DNA of 64,000 nt. Source: Promethearchaeota archaeon (GTDB lineage: Archaea; Asgardarchaeota; Lokiarchaeia; Sigyniarchaeales; SOKP01). The DNA is taken from assembly GCA_048939995.1 (NCBI GenBank), contig JBHLOY010000005.1, positions 91,753 through 155,752 of the forward strand, given 5' to 3'. The notes under the pieces are model-generated. The model was not told where the DNA came from. It saw only the letters and a program-made list of their open reading frames with translations, and ran no database searches. The position numbers and the translations under genes are program-made. Every line of letters starts with the position of its first letter. Position 1 is the stretch's first letter. Shown one piece after another: positions 3,085-60,880 of this stretch.

Positions 3085-4596
3085 ATGCCAGTTAGAGTGG
3101 GTGTGGTTTTTAATTTTCTTCAATTGCCAGATGTTTTAAAATATCCTTTTGTTATTAATAAGAGAAAAGATGATGTTCTAGTAAAGAAGGGGATATTTGT
3201 ATATACAGAGTCAATTGAAGGATTTTTAATTGGTATAGTAGAGCGAATAGTATTATTAAATGAGTATTTCTCAGATGCTCTTACTATTAAGGCTTATAAT
3301 AGTGAAAATAATCCCAATATATTGAAAGGGTTATTTCCAAGTGAAGATTTTGAATATGCAATAGCTATTGTAAGAAATTTAGGTCTTGTTGAATTTAAGG
3401 ATGATAAGAAAAATAAAATAAGTAAAATAAAACGTATGATGTATCCAGCAAGCCCAGGTAAGGAAGTTAACTTATTAGAGGAGGATACGCTGAAAAATTT
3501 TGTAGGCATAGATACAGAACATGGCCTAAGACTCGGTATATTAAAGGGTACTAAAATTGAAGCAAGAATTAATATGGATCGCCTGTTTAACAAGCATTTT
3601 GCGATTCTTTCTATATCTGGGGGAGGTAAAAGTTATCTTACATCAATCATAATTGAAGAATTATTAACCAGAGAAAAAAAATTAGGAACTCCATCTATTA
3701 TCTTAATTGATGTACATGGGGAATATACTTATTTAAAAAACATACCCCAGCTTAAAGAAAAAATCAAATTATTCGATTGTTCATTTTTTCAAATTTCAGT
3801 TCCAAACTTAAATGCCTCTATTTTTAGAAAGTATCAAGAAAAGATCTCAAATGTTCAAGTAAGAGAGCTTTCCAACTACATCAGAAAACTTAAGAAAGAA
3901 AAGAAAAATTATTCCTTAAGTGATATCATTGAATTGATAGAGAAAGAGGAAGAAGTCAATAAGAGTACAAAACAAGCACTGATAGGGTGGTTAAGCGAAT
4001 TAGAACGATTAACACTATTTGGACCTCAAGAAAACCCTAATATTAATTCAATAGCAACTCCGGGAGAATTAACTATATTTAATCTTCAAAAAGAAATTTC
4101 AATTAGAAAAAAGCAAATAATAGTTGATTATATATGTAATCGTCTGTTCTATTTAAGAAGGATGGAGCAAATTCCGCCTTTTCTAATAATAATTGAAGAG
4201 GCACATCAATTTTGCCCTGAAGCTGCATATTCGAAAGCCTTGACAAAATACATAATCGAAACAATTGCTAGAGAAGGAAGAAAATTCATGGCATGTTTGT
4301 GTTTAATTAGCCAAAGACCAAAAAGATTAAGCACAACTGCACTTTCCCAATCCAACTCAAAAATGATTTTAAACATCACTAATCCTTACGATTTAAAACA
4401 TTTAATGGATAGTTCAGAAGTCATTACTAAAGAATATGCAAACATGATTTCAAGCTTAGGGGTAGGAGAGATGCTTTTAATGGGAAATGCGGTTAATTAT
4501 CCTATATTTATTGATGTTAGAAAGAGAAGATTCATGTCAAATACAGAAGAGAGCTCATTATCACAAACATGTCTGAATTGGAAGATTTTAGATTAG
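3085..4596 (+). CDS. HerA/FtsK-superfamily (DUF87) ATPase
   Basis: KHFAILSISGGGKS Walker A, IDVHGEY, IIIEEAH Walker B, AREGRKF, SQRP. Confidence 0.85.
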   Translation: MPVRVGVVFNFLQLPDVLKYPFVINKRKDDVLVKKGIFVYTESIEGFLIGIVERIVLLNEYFSDALTIKAYNSENNPNILKGLFPSEDFEYAIAIVRNLGLVEFKDDKKNKISKIKRMMYPASPGKEVNLLEEDTLKNFVGIDTEHGLRLGILKGTKIEARINMDRLFNKHFAILSISGGGKSYLTSIIIEELLTREKKLGTPSIILIDVHGEYTYLKNIPQLKEKIKLFDCSFFQISVPNLNASIFRKYQEKISNVQVRELSNYIRKLKKEKKNYSLSDIIELIEKEEEVNKSTKQALIGWLSELERLTLFGPQENPNINSIATPGELTIFNLQKEISIRKKQIIVDYICNRLFYLRRMEQIPPFLIIIEEAHQFCPEAAYSKALTKYIIETIAREGRKFMACLCLISQRPKRLSTTALSQSNSKMILNITNPYDLKHLMDSSEVITKEYANMISSLGVGEMLLMGNAVNYPIFIDVRKRRFMSNTEESSLSQTCLNWKILD

Positions 4597-4865
4597 GTTA
4601 AATCTTCCATAAATTCATCTTTCACTTCTTGATTATATTTGTTAAAGACGACCATCTTTTTGCTCTTTGACACCCGAAAAACATTTATAATTCCCATACT
4701 CTCTAACCTCATCAATAATTCTTCTAATAATAACGGATTCATAAATGGAAATTCTTTCTTTAATAACTCTTCCATCCTCTTATCTAAAATTTCTCCTTTA
4801 TTTTTTTTTAAAATGTCTAAAATTGAATTTACTATTGGCTTTTGGTTCCAACGATGTGTTTCGAT
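4593..4865 (-). CDS. Small winged-helix-like protein downstream of cdc48; probable ATC start (track start 4775 looks truncated)
   Basis: Frame open from TGA at 4872-4874; AGGTGA 6 nt before ATC at 4865; LMRLESMGIINVFRV..MVVF helix-wing pattern. Confidence 0.55.
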   Translation of the reverse strand: METHRWNQKPIVNSILDILKKNKGEILDKRMEELLKKEFPFMNPLLLEELLMRLESMGIINVFRVSKSKKMVVFNKYNQEVKDEFMEDLT

Positions 4866-4925
4866 ATCATATCACCTTATTTTTGAATTTAAAATTTAAT
4901 AGAAATATATTTATAATAATAAAAG

Positions 4926-7151
4926 TTAAACAAACAATCGATCTTCTTTTGATTGTTCAATAATTCTACTTTTTAATCGCTCACCAAATTTTTCATACCA
5001 TGAAATAATATCTGCTGATATACTCGGAAAAAGAAATTCTTTTGCTTTTTCAAAATGCTGAAGTGATACTTTTTTAGCTTTAATGTTTTCTCTTAATGCA
5101 ATCATAGCGGCTTCACGACAAAGAGTTTCAATATCAGCTCCAGAAAAACCTTTAAGGTTTTTATTTAGATCATTCAAATTAAAATCGGCTATTGGCATAT
5201 TTTTAACAAATATCTTTAAAATTTCTAATCTTTCATTTTCATCTGGAGCAGGTACCATAAGAATACGATCAATTCTTCCAGGTCTTATTAAAGCGGGATC
5301 TAAAATATCAGGTCGATTAGTAGCAGCGATCACGACAATATCTTTATTAATTTCTAGTCCATCTAATTCTGTCAAAAATTGAGATAGAACTTTTTCAGAT
5401 ACTCCTGAATCTGAAGTATATCTGCCTCTTGAAGGTGCAATAGAATCAAATTCATCGAAAAATATGATACAAGGAGCTGACATTCTGGCCTTTCTAAAAA
5501 CTTCCCGAATTGCTTTTTCACTTTCTCCTACATACTTAGACAATAATTCTGGTCCTTTTATCGATATAAAATTTGCTTTACTCTCAGTAGCAACGGCTCT
5601 CGCTAATAAAGTCTTGCCACATCCAGGAGGACCATATAATAGTATACCTTTTGGAGGAGTAATTCCCATTCTTGAAAATATTTTGGGATGAGATAAGGGC
5701 CAATCTACTGCTTCTATTAGTTTCTGTTTTAGCTCGGTAAGTCCACCAATTTGTTCCCAAGAAACATTAGGGATTTCCACAAAAACTTCTCTTATCCCAG
5801 AGGGAGTTACTTCTTTTAGAGCTTCATCAAAATCTTCTTTATTAACTATTATTTTTTCCAAAAGTTCAGGATCTAAAGAATCTGATTCTAAATCTATCTC
5901 TGGTAAATATCTCCTTAAAGCTGACATAGCAGCTTCACGACAAACAGCCGAAATATCTGCACCGACAAACCCATGTGTAATATTAGCATAATCTTTAAGA
6001 GAAACTTTTTTATCTAATGGCATATTTCGAGTATGAATCTGAAAGACTTCTCGCCGTCCTTTCTCATTTGGTACTTTTATTTCAATCTCACGATCAAATC
6101 TTCCAGGTCGCCTTAAAGCTGAATCTAAACTATTCGGTCTATTAGTAGCTCCAATCACAATGACTCTCCCTCTGCTATGTAATCCGTCCATTAAGGCTAG
6201 TAGTTGAGCAACGACTCTTCTTTCTACTTCCCCTGTCACAGTTTCTCTCTTTGGTGCAATGGCATCAATCTCATCAATAAAGATTATAGATGGATTCTTT
6301 TCTTCGGCTTCTTCAAAAAGTTTTCTTAACTTTTTTTCAGATTCCCCATAAAATTTACTCATTATCTCTGGTCCATTTATAGATATGAAATGAGCTTCAC
6401 TTTCATTAGCAACAGCTCTTGCTAGCAAAGTTTTTCCACAACCGGGGGGTCCTCTTAACAATACACCTTTAGGGGGATCTATACCTAATCTTTTAAACAA
6501 CATAGGATGTCTTAATGGCAATTCAACCATTTCCCTAACTCTTTGTATTTCTTTATCTAACCCCCCAACATCTTCATAAGTAACATATTCTCCTCCCCGT
6601 TCCTCCTCTTCAGTAATATGCTCACTAATATGAAGCTGTGTCTCTGGCTTTATTACACAAAATCCATTAGGTTTTATGCTTATAACCTTGAAGGCAATTT
6701 CTCTACTAATTCCTATCGAAATATAGATATAATCATCCAATGAAACTGGATAATTGTTTAACTTTCTTTTAACAAATGTTTCAAACCGGGGATTTTTATT
6801 CCCTGTCATTTTGACATTTGCTGGAGCTAAAACAATGCTTTGAGCTGGTAATACTTCCACTTTTCGAATCTCTATAGTGTCGTCTATCGCGGTTCCCGTA
6901 TTTTTTCTTAACCTAGAGTCTATTCTGATGATCCCTAATCCATCATCTTGAGGATAACTTGGCCATGCAATACCGACACTCTCTTTCTTTCCTATCAAAG
7001 CAACATGATCACCCGTTTGAATATTTAATTCTTCCCTTGTTTTTGAGTCTATCCTTATAATATTACGACCAATATCTCTCTTTTTAGCCTTTTGAACTCT
7101 TAGGGTAAGACTTTTCTGTTCATCTATTTCTTTTCGATTATTCGAATTCAT
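4926..7151 (-). CDS. cdc48: Cdc48/VCP/p97 AAA+ ATPase
   Basis: N-domain plus two AAA modules (GPPGCGKT twice; IFIDEID and IFFDEFD; RPGRFDR and RPGRIDR). Confidence 0.97.
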
Positions 7152-7234
7152 ATTTATTCGATTTTATCAATTCATTAATTATGTAAAATAATTCTTTTGT
7201 AAAAATTTTTTTGTTTATCTTCACATCTTTTTAT

Positions 7235-8290
7235 TTATGATTTTTTAAAGAAACTATCCAAGGTTAATTGTTTTCTAGAAAGCTCTTGTTTCTTTAATCG
7301 TTCTAAAGCATTATTTACTCGTTGAGCTGAGAAATTATGTTGCTCTATTAAAAGTTCCTGAATTCCTTCATAATTTATTTTTTTCCAAACAATTTTGGGA
7401 TACTCCTTCTTCACATCGGGATTAAGAAATATCTCTTTTATCTGTTCGATCACTTCTAAATCTATGTCGATTTCCTTTCCTCTAACTTCTATATTGCTTT
7501 TTAAAATATTCTCTAAAGAGCCATATTCTTTGATCAGATTTAGAGCTGTATGCTGACCTATTCCTTTTATTCCTGGAAAGAAGTCAGTTCCAATTAGAAT
7601 TCCCATTTCTACTAATTGTTCTCTAGTAATTTTTAAACTTTCCATGAATTTATCTAATGAAATATATTCAATATCTAAAGTTTTGGTAGTATCTCTTACT
7701 TTTACTGTTCTGCTTACAGCGAAATTTCTTATTAATCTTTCTCCACCAAATAACAAAGTATCATAATCTTGCGAGGCACATGCCCAAGCATCTCCCTTTT
7801 CTACAAGATAAGCAGATTGAGCTTCACCTTCAGAACTAGCATCCACAATAGGAATTCCAAAATAATGAATTAATTTCTTACTTTCTTCAATCATACTTTC
7901 ATCTAATTTTGAAGTAAGTTGCGCATACTTTTTTGCTTCTCTTAAATCCTCCTTCTCTTTGGCTTTTATCATTTTCTCCTTATATTCTTCTTTGATCTTT
8001 CTTCTCTCTTCGATCGTACCCATCTTTAATTGAGATGGAGTTCCATCAAAAACGAAGATGGGTTTTATACTATGTTCTAAAAAATTAATTGTTCTATAAA
8101 ACAGTCCAGAAAGATGCGAGGTCACATTACCTTCATCATCCATCAATAAAGTGCCATCATTTTGGCGAATAATAGCTAAAAATTGGTAAATTGTATTAAA
8201 TGCATCAATTGCTATAGCACGATTAAACAGATTTTCAAAAGTTATTGTTCTTTTTACATCTGTGAGGAGCTCATTAATTTTTATTCCCAT
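7235..8290 (-). CDS. fen: Flap endonuclease 1
   Basis: MGI start, IDAFN, TSHLSGLFYR, EGEAQ, SQDYD, GTDF, C-terminal PIP box QLTLDSFF. Confidence 0.97.
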   Translation of the reverse strand: MGIKINELLTDVKRTITFENLFNRAIAIDAFNTIYQFLAIIRQNDGTLLMDDEGNVTSHLSGLFYRTINFLEHSIKPIFVFDGTPSQLKMGTIEERRKIKEEYKEKMIKAKEKEDLREAKKYAQLTSKLDESMIEESKKLIHYFGIPIVDASSEGEAQSAYLVEKGDAWACASQDYDTLLFGGERLIRNFAVSRTVKVRDTTKTLDIEYISLDKFMESLKITREQLVEMGILIGTDFFPGIKGIGQHTALNLIKEYGSLENILKSNIEVRGKEIDIDLEVIEQIKEIFLNPDVKKEYPKIVWKKINYEGIQELLIEQHNFSAQRVNNALERLKKQELSRKQLTLDSFFKKS

Positions 8291-8348
8291 TTTTCATCTC
8301 TTTTGCATTTCTCAAATAATAAATATTATTTTTTATATATAATTCACA

Positions 8349-8903
8349 CTAAATATTAAGGCGATTTCTGGGTCTCCGCTTTAACTTTGTGCCACATACT
8401 TCACACGGTTGAAACAAATTTTCAGCTTGATAAATCTTAAGACAATGAGGACAGAAAACTTCAAAAATTATTTGTTTTTGAATCCCTCTTTTATACAAAG
8501 GAGAGAACTTTAAATTAAGATTAGAACATAAGTTTTCCATTGAATAATCATTAGTAAATAAAATAACATTATCATCTTGAGATATTGAAAGTTCAAGAGT
8601 TAATGCAATCAACGATTTATCTGCATCTGATAAAATATTTAAATCTCCAGTAATCTTTGCTTTTTCCTCCACAACCTTAATGAACTTAGTCTTAGGATCT
8701 CTTATATTTAGTTTTTTATTTTCTATAGCAGATTGAATTTTATTTAAAATGTTTCTATTTTTATCTAAATATTTTTTTACTCTAATTTCATCCAAGATTT
8801 TAGAAGTAGTGTAAACCTTTTCTTGAAAAATATTGAAATCAATTCCAGTAAAAAAGATATTAGAGTCAAAAACTAGAATTGAATTCTTCTTCTGGACTGT
8901 CAT
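8349..8903 (-). CDS. nob1: Nob1-type PIN-domain rRNA endonuclease
   Basis: VFDSN, TGDLNILSDAD, TNDYSMEN, C-terminal CPHC..CEVC zinc ribbon. Confidence 0.85.
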   Translation of the reverse strand: MTVQKKNSILVFDSNIFFTGIDFNIFQEKVYTTSKILDEIRVKKYLDKNRNILNKIQSAIENKKLNIRDPKTKFIKVVEEKAKITGDLNILSDADKSLIALTLELSISQDDNVILFTNDYSMENLCSNLNLKFSPLYKRGIQKQIIFEVFCPHCLKIYQAENLFQPCEVCGTKLKRRPRNRLNI

Positions 8904-9792
8904 CTATGGGGACCTTTAGAGAACCGATAATTTTTTTTCTCAATCTTTTAAAATAATTTTCACTTAAATTTTTTGAAAGTCGCACAAATTTTATGTGAGC
9001 ACCTGCTTTTCGAATTCTAATAACTGTATGAGGTTGAATTTTTTTGAAGGTACGTTGCCCATCAATCACAATTTTTGCATTTAAACGGGGCCTTAATAAT
9101 TGAATCTCAATCTCACTATCAATTGGTAATACAATTGGTTTTAAACCGGATCTAGCAAAGCTATTTAAAGGTGTTATTTGCATTATTTCTAAAGGAGATT
9201 TAACAATAGCTCCTCCTGCGCTTAAATTATAAGCAGTGGATCCTACTGATGTAGAAATAATAAGTCCATCTAGATAGCTTCTATTTAAAAATACTCCATC
9301 AATCTTAACAGAAACTAATAATACCTTTGAACTTTTAGCCGATACTACTAAAATTTCATTTAAAGCATTATTAAGCCTGATTTCTTCAGTATTTTTAACA
9401 ATGAATGGAACAATTTTTGAACAAACTTCTGTTACATACTCTCCATTCAAAACTTTATTAAGATCATTGAAAATTGTTAATTCATTTGACTCATCTAAAA
9501 AACCAATTGATCCTATATTAACACCTAGGATTGGTGGTGCATTACGTTGAGGTAAACTACTTGCAATTCTTAGAATTGTCCCATCTCCACCAGTAGATAT
9601 GATTAATTTAGTATTTTCTTCATTCATTTCGCTCAAATCTTTACCGCTATGTGGAAATATCTTGGGGGCAATTCTAGTTTCTAATTGAACAACTTCTCCT
9701 TTTTTAACGAGATATTCAAATATTCTCTTAGTCAATTTAATAGCTCTTTCAGAATCCATCCTACAAGCTAAAGAGATCGCCTTCTTCTCCAT
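8866..9792 (-). CDS. nadK: NAD(+) kinase
   Basis: GGDGT, GSIGFL, ALNE, DGLIISTSVGSTAYNLSAGG. Confidence 0.93.
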   Translation of the reverse strand: MEKKAISLACRMDSERAIKLTKRIFEYLVKKGEVVQLETRIAPKIFPHSGKDLSEMNEENTKLIISTGGDGTILRIASSLPQRNAPPILGVNIGSIGFLDESNELTIFNDLNKVLNGEYVTEVCSKIVPFIVKNTEEIRLNNALNEILVVSAKSSKVLLVSVKIDGVFLNRSYLDGLIISTSVGSTAYNLSAGGAIVKSPLEIMQITPLNSFARSGLKPIVLPIDSEIEIQLLRPRLNAKIVIDGQRTFKKIQPHTVIRIRKAGAHIKFVRLSKNLSENYFKRLRKKIIGSLKVPIDDSPEEEFNSSF

Positions 9793-9903
9793 TAAATCAG
9801 CTTTTAATAATAATTTTATTTGAATTTGTATTACTCAAAAAAAAATAATAAATTAAATGAAAATAAAATTTTGGATTTTCCAAATCCACTTAAACTAAGA
9901 CTT

Positions 9904-10332
9904 TTAATTAATGATAACTCTATTAATCAAAGTTTTTCCAGCGATCTGCCAATACTCAACTTGAGCTGAAGACAATTTAGCTGGATTTGACCTCAAATCT
10001 TTCAATTTTGAAACAGAATCCTCATCAGTAGGCCATTGGACATCAAGAGAGTTATATGATTCAAGATCCATAATGTTTATCAGACTTTCTTCGATAAAGT
10101 TAATTTGAGCATTACCTTTAATTATTTCTGGAACTTCTACCATTGAACCTGAAGGATAAGTTAGAGATCTTTTATTATTGTCAAACATACCTACACAGAC
10201 TACTCTTACTTTAGCATGACCATGTTTTCCACTTTTCGAGCGCTCAGTTGACTTGATTATGCATGGCTCCCCTTCGACCATTATATATTGACCGGTTTTT
10301 AACTTCTGAATTTCAGTTCTTCTAATAGACAA
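9904..10332 (-). CDS. eif5a: Translation factor aIF5A/eIF5A
   Basis: Hypusine loop SKSGKHGHAK; TTG start after GGTGA. Confidence 0.95.
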   Translation of the reverse strand: MSIRRTEIQKLKTGQYIMVEGEPCIIKSTERSKSGKHGHAKVRVVCVGMFDNNKRSLTYPSGSMVEVPEIIKGNAQINFIEESLINIMDLESYNSLDVQWPTDEDSVSKLKDLRSNPAKLSSAQVEYWQIAGKTLINRVIIN

Positions 10333-10461
10333 TCAAAATTTCACCAATTTAAATTATTTTAATCCTCACTTTTCTTTTAATTTATATTTATTGTAAAGAA
10401 AATATTAATTTTTGGATAAATTATTAATTAATAGAATATAAAAATTGCAGATGATAATGCA

Positions 10462-11835
10462 ATGGTACTTGAAAAATTAGGAAGATCATTAGATCAAGCT
10501 ATTAGAAAGATAAGAAGATTACCTTTAGTCGATAAAGATGCGATTAACGCCTTAATTCAAGATTTGCAAAGAAGTTTATTAAGCGCTGATGTGAAAGTTG
10601 AATTAGTATTTCAAATGACTGAAAATATTAGAAAAGAGGCGATGAATACCCATCTTACTAAAGCAAAACGGAAGGATTTTGTCATAACGCTAGTACACAA
10701 TGAACTTATTGATACTCTAGGAGGAAAGCCAGCCCCAATTAGGATTAAACCAGGAAAAAGTAATGTTATTTTATTAGTTGGAATACAAGGCTCTGGAAAA
10801 ACAACAACTGTGGCCAAACTTTCTCGTTTTTATAAAAATAAGGGCTATAAAGTAGCAGCAATTACAACTGATAGTTATAGACCAGGAGCATATGAACAAC
10901 TTGCTCAATTGACAGAACAGATTGGAGTTAAGTGTTTTGGCAATCCAAACGAGAAAAATGCAATCAAAATTGCTGTAAAAGAAACTAAAAAAGCAATAAA
11001 TGAAGGATTTGACATTATAATAGTAGACACTGCTGGGCGTCATAAGGAAGAAAAGGAATTGATGAAGGAAATGACCCTAATTGAACAAAATTTAAAACCA
11101 AATGAAGTCATCCTTGTGATTGACGGAACTTTAGGTCAACAAGCCTTCTCGCAGGCCGAAGAATTCGCAAAAGCAACAAATATTGGAAGTATTATTGTAA
11201 CAAAATTAGATGGTACAGCTAAAGGAGGTGGTGCTTTATCTGCTTGTGCTGCAACTAATCAACCAATAAGATTTATAGGGTTAGGAGAGAAAATTGATGA
11301 ACTAGAAGAGTTCGAGCCAACTTCATTCGTAGGAACTCTACTTGGTGTCCCTGATTTAGAGAGTTTGGTAAAAAAGGTTCAAGAAGCAGAGGTAGATATC
11401 GATCCAGAAATGGCAAAAAGGATGATGAGAGGAAAATTCACATTAGATGATCTGTATTATCAATTAAAATCCATAAAAAAAGTGGGGAAAATGAAACAGA
11501 TACTTGCAATGGTGGGAGGAGGTAACCTTCCAGATGCTTTAAAGGATGATGCTGAGAGAAATTTGGAAAGATGGGAAATTGTACTAAATTCCATGACTAA
11601 AGAAGAAAAAGAAAATCCAAAGCTTATTAAAAAAACTAGGAAGAGAAGGATCGCAATTGGAAGCGGTACTGACTATTCAGTGATAAACCGAATGTTAGAT
11701 CAATACAATCAAATGAAAAAGTTTATGAAGAGATTTTTACAACTACAGAAAAAAGGAAAGGGAGCTCCTTTTCCCGGCATTGGTAAGATAGATCCCTCCT
11801 TCTTTAGTAAATTAGGAAAAGATTTTAAATTTTAA
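10462..11835 (+). CDS. srp54: Signal recognition particle protein SRP54
   Basis: GIQGSGKTTT, DTAGRH, TKLDGTAKGGGALS, Met-rich M domain with RIAIGSG. Confidence 0.97.
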   Translation: MVLEKLGRSLDQAIRKIRRLPLVDKDAINALIQDLQRSLLSADVKVELVFQMTENIRKEAMNTHLTKAKRKDFVITLVHNELIDTLGGKPAPIRIKPGKSNVILLVGIQGSGKTTTVAKLSRFYKNKGYKVAAITTDSYRPGAYEQLAQLTEQIGVKCFGNPNEKNAIKIAVKETKKAINEGFDIIIVDTAGRHKEEKELMKEMTLIEQNLKPNEVILVIDGTLGQQAFSQAEEFAKATNIGSIIVTKLDGTAKGGGALSACAATNQPIRFIGLGEKIDELEEFEPTSFVGTLLGVPDLESLVKKVQEAEVDIDPEMAKRMMRGKFTLDDLYYQLKSIKKVGKMKQILAMVGGGNLPDALKDDAERNLERWEIVLNSMTKEEKENPKLIKKTRKRRIAIGSGTDYSVINRMLDQYNQMKKFMKRFLQLQKKGKGAPFPGIGKIDPSFFSKLGKDFKF

Positions 11836-11859
11836 TAATTAATATGATTTTAGATTAAT

Positions 11860-12489
11860 TTGGTTGACTTTTTAATAATATTTGAAGAGCTTCAATATTA
11901 TTCCAAAAATGATGTTGATAAAGGATCAATACCTGTAGAAATTTATAAATTATGTTCCAGTATTAAGGAAACCTTTTGCCTTTCCTATTCTATTAGAAAG
12001 AACAATAATCTATATTTACTTTTTTATAACAATCAAATTTTAATTAAACTTCAAGGAAATGAACTAAGATTTCTAGGACCAGATGAACGATCACAGGCAA
12101 TCTTATTAAATAAAGCGATATATAAAACCAATGAAGTTAATAATGTTAATAGGTGGAATAAATCAACTTCAGGAATATATATTAGAAAAATTGAAAGTCC
12201 ACTTAAATTTCTATTTTTGTTTGAGTCATTAAGTTATAATAAAATCATTATACTTAATGATTATATTAATAATGATATTTTGACAATTGAAGATTTAAAA
12301 AATTTAAGAAATCTAAATGATTATCTTTTTATTTTACCGAATTTTCACAAAGGATCAAAAGTAGCCAACTTTTTGGACTTAGTTAAAAAAATCAATAATG
12401 TAAAATTTGTAATCCTTCCTAAAATCAAAAGCGATGCAAATAAAATATTATATATTAATTTTATAATCGATCAACAGACTAAGTTTTAG
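11860..12489 (+). CDS. Divergent TrmY-like (tRNA pseudouridine-N1 methyltransferase, SPOUT) protein
   Basis: FCLSYSIRK and LRFLGPDERSQAILLNKAI match the TrmY N-terminal pattern; SAM-binding C-terminal motifs not recognisable. Confidence 0.5.
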   Translation: MVDFLIIFEELQYYSKNDVDKGSIPVEIYKLCSSIKETFCLSYSIRKNNNLYLLFYNNQILIKLQGNELRFLGPDERSQAILLNKAIYKTNEVNNVNRWNKSTSGIYIRKIESPLKFLFLFESLSYNKIIILNDYINNDILTIEDLKNLRNLNDYLFILPNFHKGSKVANFLDLVKKINNVKFVILPKIKSDANKILYINFIIDQQTKF

Positions 12490-12502
12490 ATATAGGTTAG
12501 AT

Positions 12503-13956: not shown

Positions 13957-14595
13957 ATGTCAAACAACGAGATTTTTACTTTAGAGGACGGAAAAAGATT
14001 GATACAATTTGCAAGAGAAAATATAAACAATTATTTAAAAAATGATAAAAAGATACTTATTCCAGAAGAATTCAGAAATAAGTTCTCAGAAAATTATGGT
14101 GCTTTTGTGACATTAAATAGATATAACGTATCAGGTAATCCTTTAAGAGGGTGTATCGGTTATATCGAACCAACTTATCCACTATATGATGTAATTCATA
14201 AGGTTTCAATTAGCGCTGCTGTGGAAGATCCACGTTTTCCGTCTGTAGAAATTGAAGAAATGGATGAAATAGTTATAGAAATTTCTATTTTAACACCTCC
14301 AAAATTGATTAAAGTAAAGGATTCAAAGGAATATTTAGATAAGATCGAAATTGGAAGAGATGGTTTAATTATCGAAAAAGGAATGAGACGAGGGCTACTT
14401 TTACCTCAAGTTCCTATTGAGCATGGACGAAATTGGGATGTTGAAACTTTTTTAAAGCACACTTGTAATAAAGCATGGCTTTCAGATGATGCTTGGAAAG
14501 AAGAAAATACAAAAGTTTACTCCTTTCAAGCAATAATCTTTGAGGAAAAAACGCCAAATGGAGATGTGGAAAGAAAATATTTGAAAGCAACATGA
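13957..14595 (+). CDS. AMMECR1-domain protein (TIGR00296 type)
   Basis: GAFVTL, LRGCIG, EDPRF, GLLLPQV. Confidence 0.93.
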   Translation: MSNNEIFTLEDGKRLIQFARENINNYLKNDKKILIPEEFRNKFSENYGAFVTLNRYNVSGNPLRGCIGYIEPTYPLYDVIHKVSISAAVEDPRFPSVEIEEMDEIVIEISILTPPKLIKVKDSKEYLDKIEIGRDGLIIEKGMRRGLLLPQVPIEHGRNWDVETFLKHTCNKAWLSDDAWKEENTKVYSFQAIIFEEKTPNGDVERKYLKAT

Positions 14596-48782: not shown

Positions 48783-49622
48783 TTAATATTCATTTGGCAT
48801 TTTCTTTAACTCTGCCAATGAAAATACTGGACCATCTACACATACAAATTTATTTCCGATATTACATCTTCCACATTTGCCGATTCCACATTTCATTCTC
48901 ATTTCTAATGAATTTAAAATTTGCTTATCTTTAAAGTTTAATTCTTCTAGTACTGCGATAGTCGTTTTAATCATAATAGGAGGGCCACATACAACCGCTA
49001 CTGCATTATCAGAAGAAGGTCCGACTTCTTTAACTACGGGTGCAACAAATCCAACTTTATCTTTCCAACCTTCTTCCTCCCGGTCAATTGTTAATATGAC
49101 CTTTATATCATCTCTTTTTTTCCACGCTTCCAGATCTTCCTGATAAAGAACTTCTCCAGAGTCACGATTTCCATAAATTACGGTAATATTTTTATAGTCT
49201 TTTCTATATTTCTCATCCAGCATATATATTACAAGTGAACGTAAAGTTGAAAATGCAAATCCCCCTCCAATAATTACAATATTTTTTCCTTTCATTTCTT
49301 CAATTGGCCAACCGTTACCACAAGGACCTCTAATACCTACTGTATCACCAATATCACAGTTATGTAACGCTGTGGTTACGGTACCCATTTTCTTAATGGT
49401 AAATTTAATCGAACCTTCTTCTGTAGGTGATGATGCAATACCAATTGGACACTCTCCTTTTCCGATTAAACTTATTTCAGCAAATTGTCCTGGAATATAG
49501 TTAAAATTTTTATAATCTTCTTGTTTTTTAAATTCTAATTCCAGTGTTTTAATATCATTAATTTTGTTTTCTGCAATTATATCTTTAACCGTGGTTAATA
49601 TTGGAATATATGGATTAGGCAC
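48783..49622 (-). CDS. flxA: FlxA/AsrB-like FAD/NAD-binding [2Fe-2S] subunit
   Basis: PGQF, RGPCGNG, VCGPPIM, MKCGIGKCGRC, CVDGPVF. Confidence 0.85.
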   Translation of the reverse strand: MPNPYIPILTTVKDIIAENKINDIKTLELEFKKQEDYKNFNYIPGQFAEISLIGKGECPIGIASSPTEEGSIKFTIKKMGTVTTALHNCDIGDTVGIRGPCGNGWPIEEMKGKNIVIIGGGFAFSTLRSLVIYMLDEKYRKDYKNITVIYGNRDSGEVLYQEDLEAWKKRDDIKVILTIDREEEGWKDKVGFVAPVVKEVGPSSDNAVAVVCGPPIMIKTTIAVLEELNFKDKQILNSLEMRMKCGIGKCGRCNIGNKFVCVDGPVFSLAELKKMPNEY

Positions 49623-50673
49623 TCACTTTCTCCTCCTTCACTTCAATCTTTTTAACTTTTTTAATAATAGTTCTTAAATCATTATTTACTGGACATAATT
49701 GAATGCATCTACCGCATCCAACACATCCTAAAATATCATAATTTTCAGGATAATAACAAAATTTATGTAAAATTCTATTTCTGCAACGTTCAATACAACT
49801 ATCTCGTGGATTATGACCACTTGTATGCAGAGTATATAAACAAGATTGACACGTATCCCAAATCCTGATTCTTCTTCCCTTGTTATTATATTGATCATTT
49901 TCATCAATAACATCAAAACATGTACATGTTGGACATAGGAAAGAGCAAGTTCCGCATCCTATACATGCTTCACTGATTTCCTGCCAAATTGGATGCTCAA
50001 AATTAGGATCTAATATTTTATCAATATCTTTTAAATCTAATTGAGTAACGAATGATTCTTCTGCCTGCTTGGATAACTCTTCTGCCTCTTTTATATCTTG
50101 CTTATTCGCATCTGAAAGCCATTCCAATCTATTTACTAATTCTTTCCCCTTCTCACTGATTGCTTCAACTAAATATTTCTCACCCAGATCTATTAAAAAA
50201 ACATCCATATCCTCTTTCATAAAGGGATGACCTTCCAATGATGTACAAAAACATGTTGTTCTGGGATTATTACATCCAATCCCAATAATCGTCGAATTTT
50301 CTCTTTTTTTCAAGAAAATCTCATCCTGAAATTCTCCAAAAGCAAAAAAGTCTTCTAAAAGGACAAAACTATGCGCGTCACATGGTCTTATACCAAATAT
50401 TATATTTTTTTCATCTAAATCAGTTCTTTCGATAATTTCAGTAACATCCTTACCATCAGTTTTATATTCAAACAGTACTTCCATTTTTGGGAATAAAATC
50501 TCCTTTGGAGGTACCTTAGAATTAAGGTAATCTAGAACAATGTCATCAGGATTCATTATTTTTTTAAAGACTATATTTCCTTTTTCTTTAATTGGGGCAA
50601 AAAAATTGAATTCTTCGGCAAGTTCGATATATAACTTTCCTATTTGATTTTTTAATAAAATTTTTTGTTCTAT
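49615..50673 (-). CDS. flxB: FlxB/AsrA-like 4Fe-4S subunit; probable ATA start (track start 50556 looks truncated)
   Basis: GIRPCD, CFC, CIGCGTCSFLCPTCTC, CVGCGRC; frame extends 39 codons to ATA 6 nt after AGGTGG. Confidence 0.8.
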   Translation of the reverse strand: MEQKILLKNQIGKLYIELAEEFNFFAPIKEKGNIVFKKIMNPDDIVLDYLNSKVPPKEILFPKMEVLFEYKTDGKDVTEIIERTDLDEKNIIFGIRPCDAHSFVLLEDFFAFGEFQDEIFLKKRENSTIIGIGCNNPRTTCFCTSLEGHPFMKEDMDVFLIDLGEKYLVEAISEKGKELVNRLEWLSDANKQDIKEAEELSKQAEESFVTQLDLKDIDKILDPNFEHPIWQEISEACIGCGTCSFLCPTCTCFDVIDENDQYNNKGRRIRIWDTCQSCLYTLHTSGHNPRDSCIERCRNRILHKFCYYPENYDILGCVGCGRCIQLCPVNNDLRTIIKKVKKIEVKEEKVSA

Positions 50674-51707: not shown

Positions 51708-51709
51708 AC

Positions 51710-52165
51710 TTAACACCAACCTTTACTGAATTTCTTATTTGGTCCTAACTTTTTTACTATTTTTGTAGCCTTTTTAATTAAATTGGCGAATCTTTCACCT
51801 TCAGCTGCAGAAGCCCACATAAAGTTTACTCTTCCAGGTTCTATACCAAAAAATTCTAATAACTCTTCTAAAATTGCGAATCTTCTCCTAGCAACTAAAT
51901 TTCCAGTAAGATAATGGCAATCGCCGGGATGGCATCCTGAAACAACCACTCCGTCCCAACCATCCACTAAACTTTTAATAATGAAATAGGGATTTACCCT
52001 ACCAGAACATGGAACTCTTACTACTCTAATTGAAGGAGGATATTGAATCCTACTAACTCCTGCTAAATCTGCTCCAGCATAAGAACACCAATTACATAGG
52101 AATGCAATTATTTTTGGTTCCCACTCTTCAATTCTTCTCTCCTCTTGATCAGTTTGTGTTGTCAC
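51710..52165 (-). CDS. mvhD: MvhD/FlxD [2Fe-2S] subunit
   Basis: FLCNWCSYAGAD, VPCSGRV, GCHPGDCHY. Confidence 0.92.
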   Translation of the reverse strand: MTTQTDQEERRIEEWEPKIIAFLCNWCSYAGADLAGVSRIQYPPSIRVVRVPCSGRVNPYFIIKSLVDGWDGVVVSGCHPGDCHYLTGNLVARRRFAILEELLEFFGIEPGRVNFMWASAAEGERFANLIKKATKIVKKLGPNKKFSKGWC

Positions 52166-52168
52166 TTT

Positions 52169-55183
<3,015 letters not shown>

Positions 55184-55196
55184 CCTTTTATCCCTC

Positions 55197-55958
55197 TTAT
55201 ATCCTTACAAAAACGGGTGTATTTTCAATAATCTCACCAAATTCTACTTCACTTCTCGATTTTAATGCCAATATATGCTTCAGTACTCTGCTTGGATCAA
55301 TATCTAATTCTTTTGCTAAATCTTTAACAGATTTAGAATATTTTTCTAACGCTAATAAGATTAGGTGACGTTCGTATTCTTCTATAATAGCTTTTTCCAT
55401 TAACTTATTAAACTCTTCTTCGGGGTATTTTTCCCCATATACGTTCTCTTCTTCAGTAATTTTTCTCTGTCTGCCTACCAATGCTCTCATTCTATTGCAA
55501 GAAACCGCCATCTTTATTGCTCTAACTTTTTCCAGAAGTTCATGATCAGGATTATCTCCACTCAGAGGTGAAGGTCCCAATTCTTTAACATCATTTACAA
55601 ATTTAGTAACAACTTCACTAAATCTTTGGCCTTCTGAAGCCGAAACCCAGTCTAGTCTAATTCTATCATCAAGTCCAATAATTTTAAGAAATTTTTGAGT
55701 CATTTCAAACTTTTTTACAGCTTCATAATTTCCTTCTAAATAATGACAATCGCCGATATGGCATCCCATAACATAAACACCATCTAGACCTAATTCAAGA
55801 GCTTGAATAACAAATTTAGGATCAACTCGACCGCTACACATAACCCTAATAACCCTCATGTTTGGAGGGTATTGTATTCTACTTACTCCCGCTAGATCCG
55901 CTCCCGCATAGGAACACCAATTACATAAAAATCCTAAAAATCTTGGTTCAAAACTCAT
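55197..55958 (-). CDS. mvhD: MvhD domain with C-terminal extension ending in a winged-helix-like segment
   Basis: FLCNWCSYAGAD, GCHIGDCHY; tail SKSVKDLAKELDIDPSRVLKHILALK; ATG at 55958. Confidence 0.85.
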   Translation of the reverse strand: MSFEPRFLGFLCNWCSYAGADLAGVSRIQYPPNMRVIRVMCSGRVDPKFVIQALELGLDGVYVMGCHIGDCHYLEGNYEAVKKFEMTQKFLKIIGLDDRIRLDWVSASEGQRFSEVVTKFVNDVKELGPSPLSGDNPDHELLEKVRAIKMAVSCNRMRALVGRQRKITEEENVYGEKYPEEEFNKLMEKAIIEEYERHLILLALEKYSKSVKDLAKELDIDPSRVLKHILALKSRSEVEFGEIIENTPVFVRI

Positions 55959-55960
55959 GA

Positions 55961-57643
55961 TTATTGGCCTCCACAAGCTAATATTTCAGATATAATTTGA
56001 TCATCTGTAAAATGTTTGATTACAATGGCTTGATTAGTGCATGTGGCCCCACAAACTCCACAACCTTTGCATAATGCTTCTATAATTTCAATTTCATCAT
56101 TTTCATTCTTAATAATGGCGTGGAATGGGCACACTTTCACACATACCTCACAACCCGTACACAATGACTTATTATATTCTGGTAAACTTGAGGTTGCACC
56201 TTCCACTTCTTTCTCTTTATGAGATAAAATTGTACTAGCTCTTGATGCTGCGGAATAACCCTGAGTTATAGCTTCTGCGATATCGACAGGCCATTTCGCA
56301 GTACCTCCAATATATACTCCATCTGTGGCAAAATCACTAGGACGGAGTTTTACGTGTGCCTCCAGAAAGAAATTATTTGCTTCTGTAGGAACCTTTAATA
56401 ATTGAGCAAGAACTTTATTATCATCATTAGCAACTAATGGAGTGCTTAAAACTAAGAGATCATATGGGATAATCATCTCACTACCAATGTATTCATTAAA
56501 AACTTTGATTTGATTTTCATCGACATTTGGTAACTTATCCACATCATACTTTACAAAAATAATTCCACTTTCTCTCGCTCTCCTATAATAATCTTCATAA
56601 ATTGTTCCAGGAGTATATAAATCCCTAAATAATATAGTCACATGAGTATCAGGATTTTTTTCTTTTATTATTAGGGCATTCTTTAGTGCTGTCATACAAC
56701 AAACAGAAGAACAGTATGGTATATCATCATTTCGAGAGCCCGCACATTGAATCATAACAACATCATTCGCAACTAATTCATTCTTCTTTAATTTTGATTC
56801 CAATTCAAGTTGGGTTATTCGTTTCTGTCCATCATAGCTAAATAAACCTTTTGGATCCAAAATAGAAGAACCAACCGCTACAATAATCGCTCCAACTTCT
56901 AATTTTCGAAGATTTCCTTCTTTTTCTACTTCCACTTCAAAATTACCAACAAATCCATCAATATTTTTTACTTGAGTTGATGTCAATACTTCTAGATTTT
57001 TAGCACTCTGAATATTAGAAATAAGTTTTCCTACAAATTCGGATGCTTCAATATCATACGGGAACAATATATTAAGTGTATTTAATCTTCCCCCTAAATG
57101 CTCTTCCTTCTCAACTAAAAATGTTTTGAATCCTTGACGGCTTAAGCTAAGAGCAGCACTCATTCCAGCTACACCTCCTCCGATTACCAATGCAGTGGGA
57201 TTAACATCAATTTTTATCATGTTGAGAGGTTCAAGTTTTATTGCTTTAGCTATTCCCATTCTAACGAGATCCATCGCTTTCTCATAAGCTCTCTCTGTAT
57301 CCTTCATATGAACCCAAGTACATTGATCTCTGATATTAACAAAATTAAATAGGTATTTGTTTAGACCAGCTTCTGAAACACATTCACGGAACAAAGGTTC
57401 ATGTGTTCTGGGTGTACACGATGCAACTACTACTCTGTTTAACTTATGCTCTTTTACTGCATTTTTAATACTGGTTAAGCCAGCTTCAGAACATGTATAT
57501 AAATTATCTTCACTATGGGTAACATTATCCAAAGTACCTGCATATTCTGCTAACTTTTTACAATCAATGAACCCTCCAATGTTTGAACCGCAATGGCAGA
57601 TGAAGACGCCAACCCTTACTTCTTTTTCATTATTCTCTGACAT
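55961..57643 (-). CDS. hdrA: HdrA-like subunit (N-terminal FeS domain, FAD domain, C-terminal ferredoxin)
   Basis: GVFICHCG, SCTPRTHE, GGGVAG, CSSVCC, CTGCEVC and CKGCGVC. Confidence 0.92.
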   Translation of the reverse strand: MSENNEKEVRVGVFICHCGSNIGGFIDCKKLAEYAGTLDNVTHSEDNLYTCSEAGLTSIKNAVKEHKLNRVVVASCTPRTHEPLFRECVSEAGLNKYLFNFVNIRDQCTWVHMKDTERAYEKAMDLVRMGIAKAIKLEPLNMIKIDVNPTALVIGGGVAGMSAALSLSRQGFKTFLVEKEEHLGGRLNTLNILFPYDIEASEFVGKLISNIQSAKNLEVLTSTQVKNIDGFVGNFEVEVEKEGNLRKLEVGAIIVAVGSSILDPKGLFSYDGQKRITQLELESKLKKNELVANDVVMIQCAGSRNDDIPYCSSVCCMTALKNALIIKEKNPDTHVTILFRDLYTPGTIYEDYYRRARESGIIFVKYDVDKLPNVDENQIKVFNEYIGSEMIIPYDLLVLSTPLVANDDNKVLAQLLKVPTEANNFFLEAHVKLRPSDFATDGVYIGGTAKWPVDIAEAITQGYSAASRASTILSHKEKEVEGATSSLPEYNKSLCTGCEVCVKVCPFHAIIKNENDEIEIIEALCKGCGVCGATCTNQAIVIKHFTDDQIISEILACGGQ

Positions 57644-57649
57644 ATTATT

Positions 57650-58957
57650 TTAACCTCCTTTAACTACTTCAGCAGCTCTTGCAGCTGCTCCACTTGCTTC
57701 TGCAACTGAGCGTGGAATATCCATTGGTTCATGTACACATCCACATGTAAAAACTCCTTCTTTGCTTGTTTCTACAGGGACAAACGGAGTTGTTTTTATG
57801 AAGTTATAATTATTCAACTCAATGCCTAATATTTCAGCTAATTTATCAATCCCTTGGGGTGGGATAATGCATGTGGCTAGAACAACCATATCAAATTTCA
57901 TTTCTTTGATTTCATCAGTATCTAAATCTTCATAAACCACTATTGGATTCTCTTCTTTGTCAATTTTAACTTCAGCAATCTTGCTTTTAATATAATGAAT
58001 ATTGGCTTCTTCTTCACCTCTATGGAGAAATGATTGGAAACCTTTCCCACCTGCTCTCATATCTATATAAAATACATAAGACTCTAACTCATTGTCATGC
58101 TCATGAGCAATAATAGCTTCTTTTGTAGTATACATACAGCAAATAGATGAGCAATATTTTTCTGCTTTATCAGTTCGGGATCCAATGCACTGAAGGAATG
58201 CAATTTTTTTTGGAGTCTTTCCATCAGAGAATCTCTTAATATGTCCTTCTTGAGGACCTGAAGCACATTCTAATCTCTCAAATTCTAAAGCTGTAACTAC
58301 ATTCCTGTATTTTTTATAACCATAATTTCTTAATACTTCTATGTTTGTATCTTCAATTAAATTATAACCTGTAGCCACAATAATTGAACCGATGTTATCA
58401 AGGTTAATTACTTCGTCATTTTGTTCAAAATCAATTGCTTCTCTTTCGCATGCTTTTTCGCATATTCGACATGCATTTTTTGTGAACCATAAACACTTAT
58501 CCTTATCTATTGTCATGATGGCGGGAACCCCTTGGAGATAATACATATAAATTGCTCTTCTCTTCCTTAACTGCCGGTCAAACTCATCTTCCACTCTCAT
58601 TGGACATTTTTCAGCACAAACTCCACAATTAATACATTCGTCCTCTTTTACATAACGAGCTCGTTTTAGGATTTCTACTGAGAAATTCCCAAGCTCTCCT
58701 TCTACCTTCTGTACTTCAGCATAGGAATACAGGGTAATATTAGGATGACGATAACATTCTGATAACTTTGGAGCTAAAATACAAATTGAGCAATCATTTG
58801 TAGGAAAAGTTTTATCCAATTGAGCCATTCTTCCTCCAATACTAGGCTTCTTTTCAACCATATCCACATGAATTCCCATATCAGCCAAATCCAAGGCTGC
58901 TTGAATTCCTGCAATTCCTCCACCTATAACTAACACACTCTTTGAGGATTCTCCCAA
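57650..58957 (-). CDS. hdrA: HdrA-like subunit (FAD domain with inserted ferredoxin)
   Basis: GGGIAG, LDKTFPTNDCSIC, CINCGVC, CSSICC; TTG start 6 nt after GGAGG. Confidence 0.92.
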   Translation of the reverse strand: MGESSKSVLVIGGGIAGIQAALDLADMGIHVDMVEKKPSIGGRMAQLDKTFPTNDCSICILAPKLSECYRHPNITLYSYAEVQKVEGELGNFSVEILKRARYVKEDECINCGVCAEKCPMRVEDEFDRQLRKRRAIYMYYLQGVPAIMTIDKDKCLWFTKNACRICEKACEREAIDFEQNDEVINLDNIGSIIVATGYNLIEDTNIEVLRNYGYKKYRNVVTALEFERLECASGPQEGHIKRFSDGKTPKKIAFLQCIGSRTDKAEKYCSSICCMYTTKEAIIAHEHDNELESYVFYIDMRAGGKGFQSFLHRGEEEANIHYIKSKIAEVKIDKEENPIVVYEDLDTDEIKEMKFDMVVLATCIIPPQGIDKLAEILGIELNNYNFIKTTPFVPVETSKEGVFTCGCVHEPMDIPRSVAEASGAAARAAEVVKGG

Positions 58958-58995
58958 ATTTAACCTCCTCTAAATTAATATTTTTCTTTTTTAAT

Positions 58996-59871
58996 TTAAA
59001 CTTCAAATCCAATACTTTCGAATAAAGTATTCGGCTTTATTCTGTGAAAATTAAATCCTAATTCTTCTGGTTTAAATCCAAAGGCTATAGCAACTAACTC
59101 AGATAAGTAAAAGATCGGGATATTATATTCAGAACCTTTCTGTTTATTTAGCTCTCTTTGATTAAATTCATATTGTTGATAACAAGCTGGACAAACTACA
59201 ACAACACAATTTGCTCCAGCTTCACTGATTGCTTTCAATTTGTTATCAATCATTGTAAGAGACAGATCCTTGTCCGATTTCTCAACGGGATTACCGCAAC
59301 ATTCCATTTTTAACTCATAGTCAATTGATTCTGCTCCTAGTGCTTTGACTATCTCATCAATAGTCTGGGGTTCAAATGGATCATCCCAGTTAATGATTTC
59401 TGAAGGACGTAGATAGTGGCACCCATAATGCACAGCAACCTTAAATCCCTCCAAAGATTTTTCAATATTCTCCTCTACTTTTTCGATGTTCTCATATAGA
59501 ACCTGGGCAAAGTGCTTAACTTCTGTTTTTCCTTCGTAGTTCTTACCAATTTTTTTTAAATATGCATTTATTTCTTTTTTAACTAGATCATCTTTATTAA
59601 TGTAATGATTTACACCTTTTAGGGTCTCAACGCAACCTGAACAGAAGGAAATCACGCCACCATTTTTATTGCATAAACTTAAATTTCTTGCTCCTAAAGC
59701 TAACCATGTTTTATGATCTATTTGTTCAATCCCAGTTGGATCTGGGCAACAGCTAAATCCATCAACGTCATGCAATTCTATGCCGAGCTTTTCAAAAATT
59801 TTTCTTGAAGATGCTTCTAAATAAGGTAACCTTGCTGGGATTACACAACCTAAAAATAAATCAAACGTCAT
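58996..59871 (-). CDS. hdrB: Heterodisulfide reductase subunit B
   Basis: FLGC, SCCP, CSGC, HYGCH, CCG, CPAC (two CCG domains). Confidence 0.93.
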   Translation of the reverse strand: MTFDLFLGCVIPARLPYLEASSRKIFEKLGIELHDVDGFSCCPDPTGIEQIDHKTWLALGARNLSLCNKNGGVISFCSGCVETLKGVNHYINKDDLVKKEINAYLKKIGKNYEGKTEVKHFAQVLYENIEKVEENIEKSLEGFKVAVHYGCHYLRPSEIINWDDPFEPQTIDEIVKALGAESIDYELKMECCGNPVEKSDKDLSLTMIDNKLKAISEAGANCVVVVCPACYQQYEFNQRELNKQKGSEYNIPIFYLSELVAIAFGFKPEELGFNFHRIKPNTLFESIGFEV

Positions 59872-59877
59872 TTCTAA

Positions 59878-60372
59878 TCACTCCCCTTTAGTTACATATT
59901 TTTCAAATTGGGTTTCTTTAAGCAACGTTTTTATTTCTTCCATTGAAGCCGTTTTTATTTGAGGAAGTTTAAGTTTTTCCCGCCTAGCTATTATTGCATT
60001 CGAGTAAGGTATAGCAATTCCATTACCTAAAACAGCTTTTGCTTGAGCCCTAAACGCATCTGGTATCTTTCCTTTCTCAAAACACTTGTGCTTTACTAAT
60101 GAAAAAATTTCCGTCAATTCAACCTTCTGAGGGCATAATTCCACACATTTCTGACAAGTAGAACATAACCATGGGTTAGGATCTTGGCTCTCAATAAGTT
60201 TATCTTGAAGTCCTAAAATAGCTTCTTCTATTATTTTTCTAGGATTATAAGTCCCACTCGTTATCAACGCAACAGGACATCCACCAGAACAGGTTGAACA
60301 CTGATAACAATAACTTAAAGAGGCATTATGCTTAAGTACCTCGTTTCTAAACTCAAAATTTATGACACTCAT
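59878..60372 (-). CDS. hdrC: Heterodisulfide reductase subunit C
   Basis: CYQCSTCSGGCP, WLCSTCQKCVELCP. Confidence 0.93.
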   Translation of the reverse strand: MSVINFEFRNEVLKHNASLSYCYQCSTCSGGCPVALITSGTYNPRKIIEEAILGLQDKLIESQDPNPWLCSTCQKCVELCPQKVELTEIFSLVKHKCFEKGKIPDAFRAQAKAVLGNGIAIPYSNAIIARREKLKLPQIKTASMEEIKTLLKETQFEKYVTKGE

Positions 60373-60439
60373 GTAAATATCCTAGAGTATTCTGTTTAAT
60401 TTTGATAATTGTATAACCAATATAAATTTTATAAATAAC

Positions 60440-60452
60440 TTTTATAACTTTT
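60440..60452 (-). promoter_or_regulatory. Candidate BRE/TATA of the hdr operon
   Basis: AAAAGTTATAAAA on the minus strand about 70 nt upstream of the hdrC ATG. Confidence 0.35.
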
Positions 60453-60522
60453 CTTTGCCATTTTCAAATATATTTGCTCAAGGATATCACGATTTTAAAA
60501 AAAGTTATAAAAATTAAATATT

Positions 60523-60542
60523 TTCTCGATTTAAATCGAGAA
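60523..60542. promoter_or_regulatory. Perfect 20-bp palindrome (operator or terminator hairpin)
   Basis: TTCTCGATTTAAATCGAGAA is its own reverse complement. Confidence 0.5.
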
Positions 60543-60561
60543 GTTTGAATAATTTATACTC

Positions 60562-60831
60562 TTATTCTAAATGCTTCTGGAGATCAATATAGATGGGTAT
60601 TTTATCGTCTTTCTTCTTAATGACTACTTTTAGAAGACCCCCCTCAATTGAAGTACTCAATGGCTCAATTGCCTCTATTGATTCAGCATCTTTCAATTTC
60701 TTGTTTTTAGTTTTCAAACATGTATGTTCCTCGTTATAGAGATTACATTTCGAACAACAAAAGCCTATAGGCATAAAGCCTACTATGGAGCACTTATCAT
60801 AATTCTCACAATTACAATTATTACAGATAAT
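60562..60831 (-). CDS. 8-Cys microprotein; probable ATT (or ATC) start (track start 60774 is truncated)
   Basis: Extension ICNNCNCENYDKCSIVGF aligns with the neighbour's MCNSCKCENSHQCSIIGY; GGAGG 6 nt before ATT. Confidence 0.7.
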   Translation of the reverse strand: MICNNCNCENYDKCSIVGFMPIGFCCSKCNLYNEEHTCLKTKNKKLKDAESIEAIEPLSTSIEGGLLKVVIKKKDDKIPIYIDLQKHLE

Positions 60832-60880
60832 CTATCTCCTCCGCCTTTTTAATCCCTTGGTGCTTTGCTTATTCTTAATT

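Follow-up and report, generated by a model that had tools for sequence, protein, structure and literature searches.

Within a 64,000-nucleotide stretch of the genome of a Promethearchaeota archaeon (Asgardarchaeota, class Lokiarchaeia; NCBI GenBank assembly GCA_048939995.1, contig JBHLOY010000005.1, positions 91,753 to 155,752; hereafter the window), we found three minus-strand genes that very probably start at near-cognate codons: ATC at position 4865 (site 1), ATA at 50673 (site 2), and most likely ATC at 60828 (site 3). We write ATH for ATA, ATC, or ATT, and AUH for the same codons in mRNA. Comparison of orthologues and a genome-wide statistic suggest that these starts belong to a habit of the whole genus, one that would go along with relaxed proofreading of the start codon.

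An earlier note on this DNA had described a Shine-Dalgarno (SD) sequence followed by ATC, ATA, and ATT in these three genes, and a direct reading of the sequence found all three sites as claimed. On the minus strand, site 1 reads AGGTGA(T) (4877-4871) and then TGA-TAT-GAT and ATC (4865-4863), where the TGA lies within the SD (4874-4872) and supplies the in-frame stop, two codons ahead of the start. Site 2 reads AGGTGG (50685-50680), TAA-AAG with the TAA in frame (50679-50677), and ATA (50673-50671), and site 3 reads GGAGG (60842-60838), aga-TAG with the TAG in frame (60834-60832), ATT (60831-60829), and ATC (60828-60826). In-frame stops lie 0-2 codons 5′ of the ATH codon at all three sites, and no ATG, GTG, or TTG occurs between stop and ATH codon, which leaves no canonical start able to encode the N-terminal extensions, as the note had stated. 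The first canonical in-frame starts are found downstream, at ATG 4775 (4773..4775; 30 codons 3′ of ATC 4865), ATG 50556 (50554..50556; 39 codons 3′ of ATA 50673), and ATG 60774 (60772..60774; 18-19 codons downstream at site 3), and none of them is preceded by an SD. These are the starts used in public gene calls. The exact proteins from the downstream ATGs (60 amino acids (aa) at site 1, 313 aa at site 2, and 70 aa at site 3) are on public record for the source contig, and a protein atlas has sites 1 and 3 only from the downstream Met onward. The expected truncation by automated annotation was thus evident at all three genes.

The note had also reported a common spacing of 6 nucleotides (nt), shared with the TTG start of the neighboring HdrA-like gene (58955..58957, minus strand; 6 nt behind GGAGG at 58968-58964). 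Counted in nucleotides this is true, but the distances do not begin at the same part of the SD. Sites 1 and 2 start 6 nt behind GGTGA, corresponding to an aligned spacing of 6, whereas ATT 60831 and the hdrA TTG 58957 lie 6 nt behind GGAGG, an aligned spacing of 3, which is rare. ATC 60828 is located 9 nt behind GGAGG, again an aligned spacing of 6, like the GTG start of the AsrB-like gene (49620..49622, minus strand; 9 nt behind GGAGG at 49636-49632), which served as our reference for GGAGG spacing. An aligned spacing of 6, found at 4865, 50673, and 60828, is the mode for the ATG, GTG, and TTG starts of this genome. At a 6-nt spacing, the TGA of GGTGA is automatically in frame and closes the frame two codons 5′ of the start; the nearby upstream stop at many ATH starts is therefore partly a consequence of the SD itself.

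The site 1 gene (4593..4865, minus strand) encodes a 90-aa protein immediately 3′ of the gene for a Cdc48-like AAA ATPase, and profile searches matched it to no Pfam or NCBIfam family. We compared it with 24 orthologues from the genus, at 68-91% protein identity. The start codon was ATC in 23 of these and ATA in one, never ATG, while the remaining Ile-dominated conserved columns of the gene were mixed (ATT 96, ATA 51, ATC 20). GGTGA was kept 6-7 nt 5′ of the start in all 24, and most had an in-frame stop two codons before it. Residues 2-30 were conserved, many of them through synonymous codon changes, and the Met at 4775 used by gene callers was replaced by Leu codons in most orthologues. Since ATC is fixed while ordinary Ile codons are mixed, and since the extension is conserved synonymously, we infer that the extension is translated and that the third base of an old ATC start is kept by selection. 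Homologues from other families begin with ATG or GTG at about the same place. Among the three sites, only this one looks like selection for a non-ATG start.

Site 2 (49615..50673, minus strand) sits in a row of HdrA-like, MvhD, AsrA-like, AsrB-like, and FrhB-like genes and encodes an AsrA/ShyB-like iron-sulfur subunit of 352 aa. The NCBIfam ShyB, HydB, and AsrA profiles align from profile position 7-8; in ShyB and AsrA this position falls on residue 8, so that ATA 50673 lies at the expected first residue of the family, in line with the AsrA-like N-terminus that the note had read in the extension. The match to the ShyB/HydB family is full-length (residues 8-341 on profile positions 8-330 of 334), Pfam Fer4_22 matches residues 237-330, and the scores are below the curated cut-offs (188 bits versus 690-750, and 149 versus 323 for AsrA); the protein is a homologue, not an equivalog, of the AsrA/ShyB/HydB beta subunits. 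A start at ATG 50556 would lose 39 conserved residues. The SD is conserved in relatives, which we aligned in two overlapping locus sets whose counts are not additive. Rows at 81-94% N-terminal identity carried ATA or ATC behind the same SD (four in one set, nine in the other), two relatives at 85-88% N-terminal identity had ATG behind GGAGG, and farther orthologues and paralogues had ATG, GTG, or TTG at exactly the aligned start codon. A paralogue within this genome also begins with ATG.

The third gene (60562..60828, minus strand) encodes a Cys-rich protein of 88 aa (88-89 codons), of a family for which Pfam and NCBIfam hold no model. Its N-terminal Cys cluster (CNNCNC...C) lies 5′ of the first ATG, and a start there would cut it. 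The earlier note had placed the start at ATT 60831 and aligned the extension with the Met-initiated paralogue next door. The alignment held: the tandem paralogue (60881..61081, minus strand, ATG start) begins M-CNSCKCEN, compared with I-I-CNNCNCEN at site 3. The choice of start codon shifted by one codon. Orthologues and paralogues have ATG opposite ATC 60828, or TTG in two cases (the orthologue L073 of genome G023 and the tandem paralogue of G018), and ATC 60828 has the modal spacing. The closest relative reads AGT-ATC at this point, leaving ATC as the sole candidate start there. Both lines of evidence make ATC 60828 the more likely start. Contigs from two sequencing runs of different studies match site 3 exactly. 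The small Cys-rich protein (CNxCxC...CS(I/V)VG...FCC..C) occurs in two to three tandem copies in nearly all genomes of the genus, just 5′ of hdrC/hdrB-like genes (60562-61087 on the minus strand of the window; loci L061-L090). Contigs of two runs join 61015 to 60806 with 40 other letters between, and some strains may therefore have a recombined or single copy.

Comparison of the same codon among orthologues, a check that the note had proposed, thus placed ATH where relatives have ATG, GTG, or TTG, with conserved extensions. As in the AUU starts of Escherichia coli infC and pcnB, the three sites combine an SD at functional distance, the lack of a canonical alternative, the start position of orthologues, and selection at the protein level.

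The note had further suggested that the lineage uses ATH starts routinely and had called for a genome-wide scan, which we carried out on this genome (G000; a 3.75-Mb assembly with 30.5% GC and 98% completeness). Using a crude, self-made set of 3299 open reading frames (ORFs) of at least 90 codons, we checked each codon from the upstream stop to the first ATG, GTG, or TTG for an upstream 5-mer of GGAGGTGATC, counting codons that lie at least 8 codons before the first canonical start. This statistic sees only SD-led cases. At an aligned spacing of 6, an SD preceded 36 of 1815 ATH codons versus 16 of 10637 other codons (odds ratio 13.4, p = 5e-19); at spacings of 5-8, the counts were 67/1815 versus 74/10637 (odds ratio 5.5, p = 8e-21). 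The excess is far beyond chance, and the ATH rate at spacing 6 (1.98%) is near that of first ATGs (2.6%). ATA, ATT, and ATC behaved alike, with shares that roughly follow ordinary Ile codon usage. CTG showed an SD excess too (6 of the 47 CTG codons before a first canonical start). SD-led CTG codons were seen to open typical N-termini of a flavodoxin, an HdrA-like protein, and a small GTPase; examples of such codons in G000 are C16:15506 (+), C7:86060 (+), and C23:209408 (-).

The candidate extensions carried recognizable protein features. A complete P-loop (G-x4-GK[ST]) preceded the first canonical start in 6 of 68 extensions, compared with 0.07 expected from shuffles, and inspection by eye found candidate ATH starts opening the N-termini of ABCE1, APS kinase, PheT, aldehyde:ferredoxin oxidoreductase (AOR), ABC ATPases, and small GTPases. 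Several of the affected proteins would need the extension for function, because a P-loop or Fe-S motif falls inside it. ORFs with SD-led starts, all counted alike, numbered 61 for ATH versus 154 for ATG (a lower bound), 63 for TTG, and 17 for GTG. These counts point to about 60 long ORFs per genome with an SD-led ATH (or CTG) start, about one in five to six of the SD-led starts counted. A codon-usage mixture put the number of ORFs with coding extensions of 20 or more codons at roughly 100-180, using a score that separates coding from intergenic sequence poorly, and overall roughly 100 or more genes appear to be affected. SDs were stronger at ATH starts, with at least a 6-mer at 37 of 62, versus 40 of 157 ATG starts (p = 3.6e-6). 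The share of operon-internal genes was 0.39 for SD-led ATH starts versus 0.45 for SD-led ATG starts, and the genes with SD-led ATH starts are functionally unrelated. An Rpo7-like (RpoE′) ORF (C11:87087, minus strand) has no canonical start in its first ~128 codons; its start must therefore be non-canonical and further upstream.

The signal extends beyond this genome. Six further species of the genus, sampled over 787 kb, had an SD before 15 of 403 ATH codons versus 18 of 2682 other codons (odds ratio 5.7, p = 5e-6), which supports a habit common to the whole genus and agrees with the routine use that the note had proposed. In a representative of a further genus (G030, 320 kb), the counts were 4/103 versus 1/817 (p = 7e-4). 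The complete genome of a member of another family (G032, 1.2 Mb) showed no significant ATH excess behind SDs (6/481 versus 29/3045), although its SD use at ATG is similar to that of G000.

A candidate basis for this distribution is the initiation factor aIF1, the homologue of eIF1. In the genus, no ATG, GTG, or TTG precedes the zinc knuckle of the aIF1 (SUI1) gene (L095-L101, L108-L110), and all nine loci from the genus carry AAAGGTTGTGA, 9 nt, and a conserved ATT, without any canonical start. The aligned start codon is ATA in G030 (L106), TTG in G032, and ATG, TTG, or GTG in other genera. The ATH excess was seen where aIF1 starts with ATT or ATA and was absent from G032 with its TTG start. 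The alignment of the aIF1 proteins showed no striking change in the genus. In vitro, aIF1 discriminates against AUU and blocks binding to AUU mRNA (review, PMC4705826).

We propose that the SD would pair with the 3′ end of the 16S rRNA and put the ATH codon in the ribosomal P site, at a distance of about 6 nt from GGTGA or 9 nt from GGAGG. The initiator Met-tRNA would then pair with the first two bases, the mismatch at the third being tolerated, so that the first residue would be Met. At sites 2 and 3, ATH would be a young replacement of an ancestral ATG, brought about by AT-biased drift under relaxed selection on the start codon and buffered by strong SDs. The permissive condition would be relaxed start-codon proofreading, with aIF1 held at a level that allows initiation at AUH. 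More tentatively, and perhaps a one-in-three prospect at best, the genus may live with such relaxed proofreading since its aIF1 is itself translated from ATT. Feedback of the infC kind would keep aIF1 low, several percent of genes, among them essential ones, would regularly start at AUH or CUG, and the same may hold in other lineages of the order.

Several observations weigh against near-cognate initiation as a regular habit, or against its link to aIF1. The statistic detects SD-led cases only and rests on the crude ORF set, background alone should account for about 13 of the 67 ATH hits, and for most genome-wide candidates homology was assessed by visual inspection and by the P-loop count. 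A look for RNA sequencing runs containing this DNA listed none. The result for G030 consists of four hits only, and the correspondence between the aIF1 start and the ATH excess covers the genus, G030, and G032, three lineages that belong to a single order. At site 3, ATC is a probable assignment, with ATT as the less likely alternative. Moreover, aIF1 was not found in the G000 assembly, either with the PF01253 profile or by tblastn with the proteins of close relatives, and PF01253 was also not found in six other genomes of the genus. As the whole 3-kb aIF1 neighborhood of the two closest relatives is likewise missing from G000, and as the gene often lies near contig ends in other metagenome-assembled genomes (MAGs), we read this absence as an assembly gap in a region that assembles poorly, and not as a loss. 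The initiator tRNA also escaped detection: none of the 9-20 tRNAs found in G000 by ARAGORN has a CAT anticodon, and a search of G000 for the initiator anticodon-stem motif gave chance matches only. The Rfam tRNA model found 21 tRNAs in the assembly, again none with a CAT anticodon, which suggests that many tRNA genes either are unassembled or have unusual intron or split architectures.

These observations have to be set against the alternatives. The simplest is that translation begins at the first downstream ATG and that the extensions are untranslated leaders, open by chance. The canonical ATGs are indeed only 18-39 codons downstream, where gene callers chose them. Yet the extensions keep their amino acids while synonymous codons vary, most orthologues have a Leu codon in place of the site 1 ATG, and the downstream starts would drop 39 residues from within the ShyB/AsrA profiles as well as half of the Cys cluster of site 3. 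With no SD at any of these ATGs, we consider this explanation very improbable. Even less credible, to the point of being negligible, is that mistakes in sequencing or assembly turned ATG into ATH. A single substitution separates each of the codons from ATG and the genome is a metagenome bin, but the relatives are MAGs from several projects, and the same ATH recurs in independent assemblies (24 at site 1, about ten at site 2). The contigs from other studies are identical at site 3, all three H bases occur, and some 60 genes are affected. In the contig comparison, which extended over sites 2 and 3, none of the variants listed falls at 50671-50673, a weak check of site 2. Programmed recoding into the extensions, by read-through or frameshifting, was rejected, as no upstream ORF with a canonical start is able to run in. 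At site 1 the out-of-frame ATG 4870 is missing from most orthologues, at site 2 the preceding gene terminates in another frame (stop at 50690-50688), and at site 3 there is no start in the open frame 5′ of the TAG.

Two further explanations accept the ATH starts and differ in how or why they are used. The starts might be read by another route, for example by an initiator-like tRNA whose anticodon has changed, or with Ile as the first residue. The undetected initiator tRNA and the mere ~20 tRNAs detectable in the assembly leave room for this, and the CTG enrichment could be listed in its favor, although a single anticodon change would not explain CTG and loose proofreading would. A CAU anticodon that tolerates one mismatched base fits the use of all three H bases and CTG better than a dedicated tRNA would, and the shares of the ATH starts follow ordinary Ile codon usage. 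We know of no initiator-like tRNA of changed anticodon in archaea, and we regard this route as unlikely. Somewhat less unlikely, but still doubtful, is the suggestion of the earlier note that weak starts tune the stoichiometry of complex subunits. Sites 2 and 3 do lie in or beside Hdr/Mvh-type operons, and the ATC of site 1, fixed in the genus, suggests selection for a weak start, making it the exception. Against adaptive tuning as a general explanation, most relatives use ATG for the orthologous subunits of sites 2 and 3, an operon-internal position is no commoner for ATH genes than for ATG genes, the affected genes are functionally unrelated, and the stronger SDs at ATH starts suggest compensation and not weakening. 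Near-cognate initiation, presumably under relaxed proofreading, accounts best for the evidence as a whole.

In E. coli, near-cognate starts are a handful of regulatory exceptions. The starts described here resemble the AUU codons of infC (encoding IF3) and pcnB in being SD-led, one base from AUG, and, as we propose, read by the initiator tRNA, and they belong to the alternative initiators of NCBI translation table 11 (ATT, ATC, ATA, CTG). They differ in scale, with an entire archaeal genus showing some 60 SD-led cases per genome, in unrelated and partly essential genes, and in the fidelity factor concerned, which is aIF1 and not IF3. The AUU start of infC makes IF3 autoregulatory, its use depending on the fidelity factor (PMC4705826), and the ATT start of aIF1 in the genus offers a parallel. 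Eukaryotic eIF1 is likewise translated from a poor start context, which provides negative feedback on stringency (PMC4705826). The fidelity-factor gene of the genus shares the weak start; eIF1, however, uses AUG in a poor Kozak context reached by scanning, unlike the SD-led ATT of aIF1, where feedback would have to operate by analogy. Ribosome profiling in Haloferax volcanii placed ~30% of putative alternative initiation sites at near-cognate codons, which the authors set aside as possible false positives (PMC7261190). None of those sites, being additional or alternative ones, was the only start of a conserved full-length protein, and that work described no genomic signature running through a lineage. 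In reviews, AUG, GUG, and UUG are the only archaeal starts listed, and SD sequences are described as rare in Lokiarchaea (PMC7531240, PMC12993045). The genus otherwise fits published archaeal and Asgard initiation, with aIF1, aIF1A, and aIF2 and a mix of SD-led and leaderless mRNAs. Our literature search turned up no mention of AUH starts in Asgard archaea. Starts of this kind are known; their scale, the lineage, and the proposed link to aIF1 are new.

For annotation, these starts mean that gene finders restricted to ATG, GTG, and TTG would truncate or miss dozens of proteins in these genomes, with P-loops, Fe-S motifs, and probably aIF1 itself among the casualties. Such truncation would distort functional annotation, family alignments, and predicted structures in a lineage that is of interest as the prokaryotes nearest to eukaryotes. 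Prokaryotic and eukaryotic initiation differ centrally in how stringently the start codon is selected. If our proposal holds, an Asgard genus in which eIF1/eIF2-type factors work alongside SD guidance and AUH is accepted no less readily than UUG, its stringency kept low by feedback through an ATT-started aIF1, would be a natural system for studying how aIF1/eIF1 sets stringency.

Two further candidates in the window were examined and rejected. A fourth SD followed by ATA, at 14288 on the minus strand, proved to be a false positive, lying antisense inside a well-supported plus-strand gene. The MvhD gene (51710..52168, minus strand) seemed to lack a start, but a normal GTG was found at 52165, behind AGGTG. 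This MvhD-like gene follows the gene for a 1011-aa HdrA-like protein in the same frame, with only TAA-AAA between them (52163-52171, minus strand). The pair resembles a fused HdrA2 architecture, and the NCBIfam model hetero_SS_HdrA2 matches the C-terminal part.

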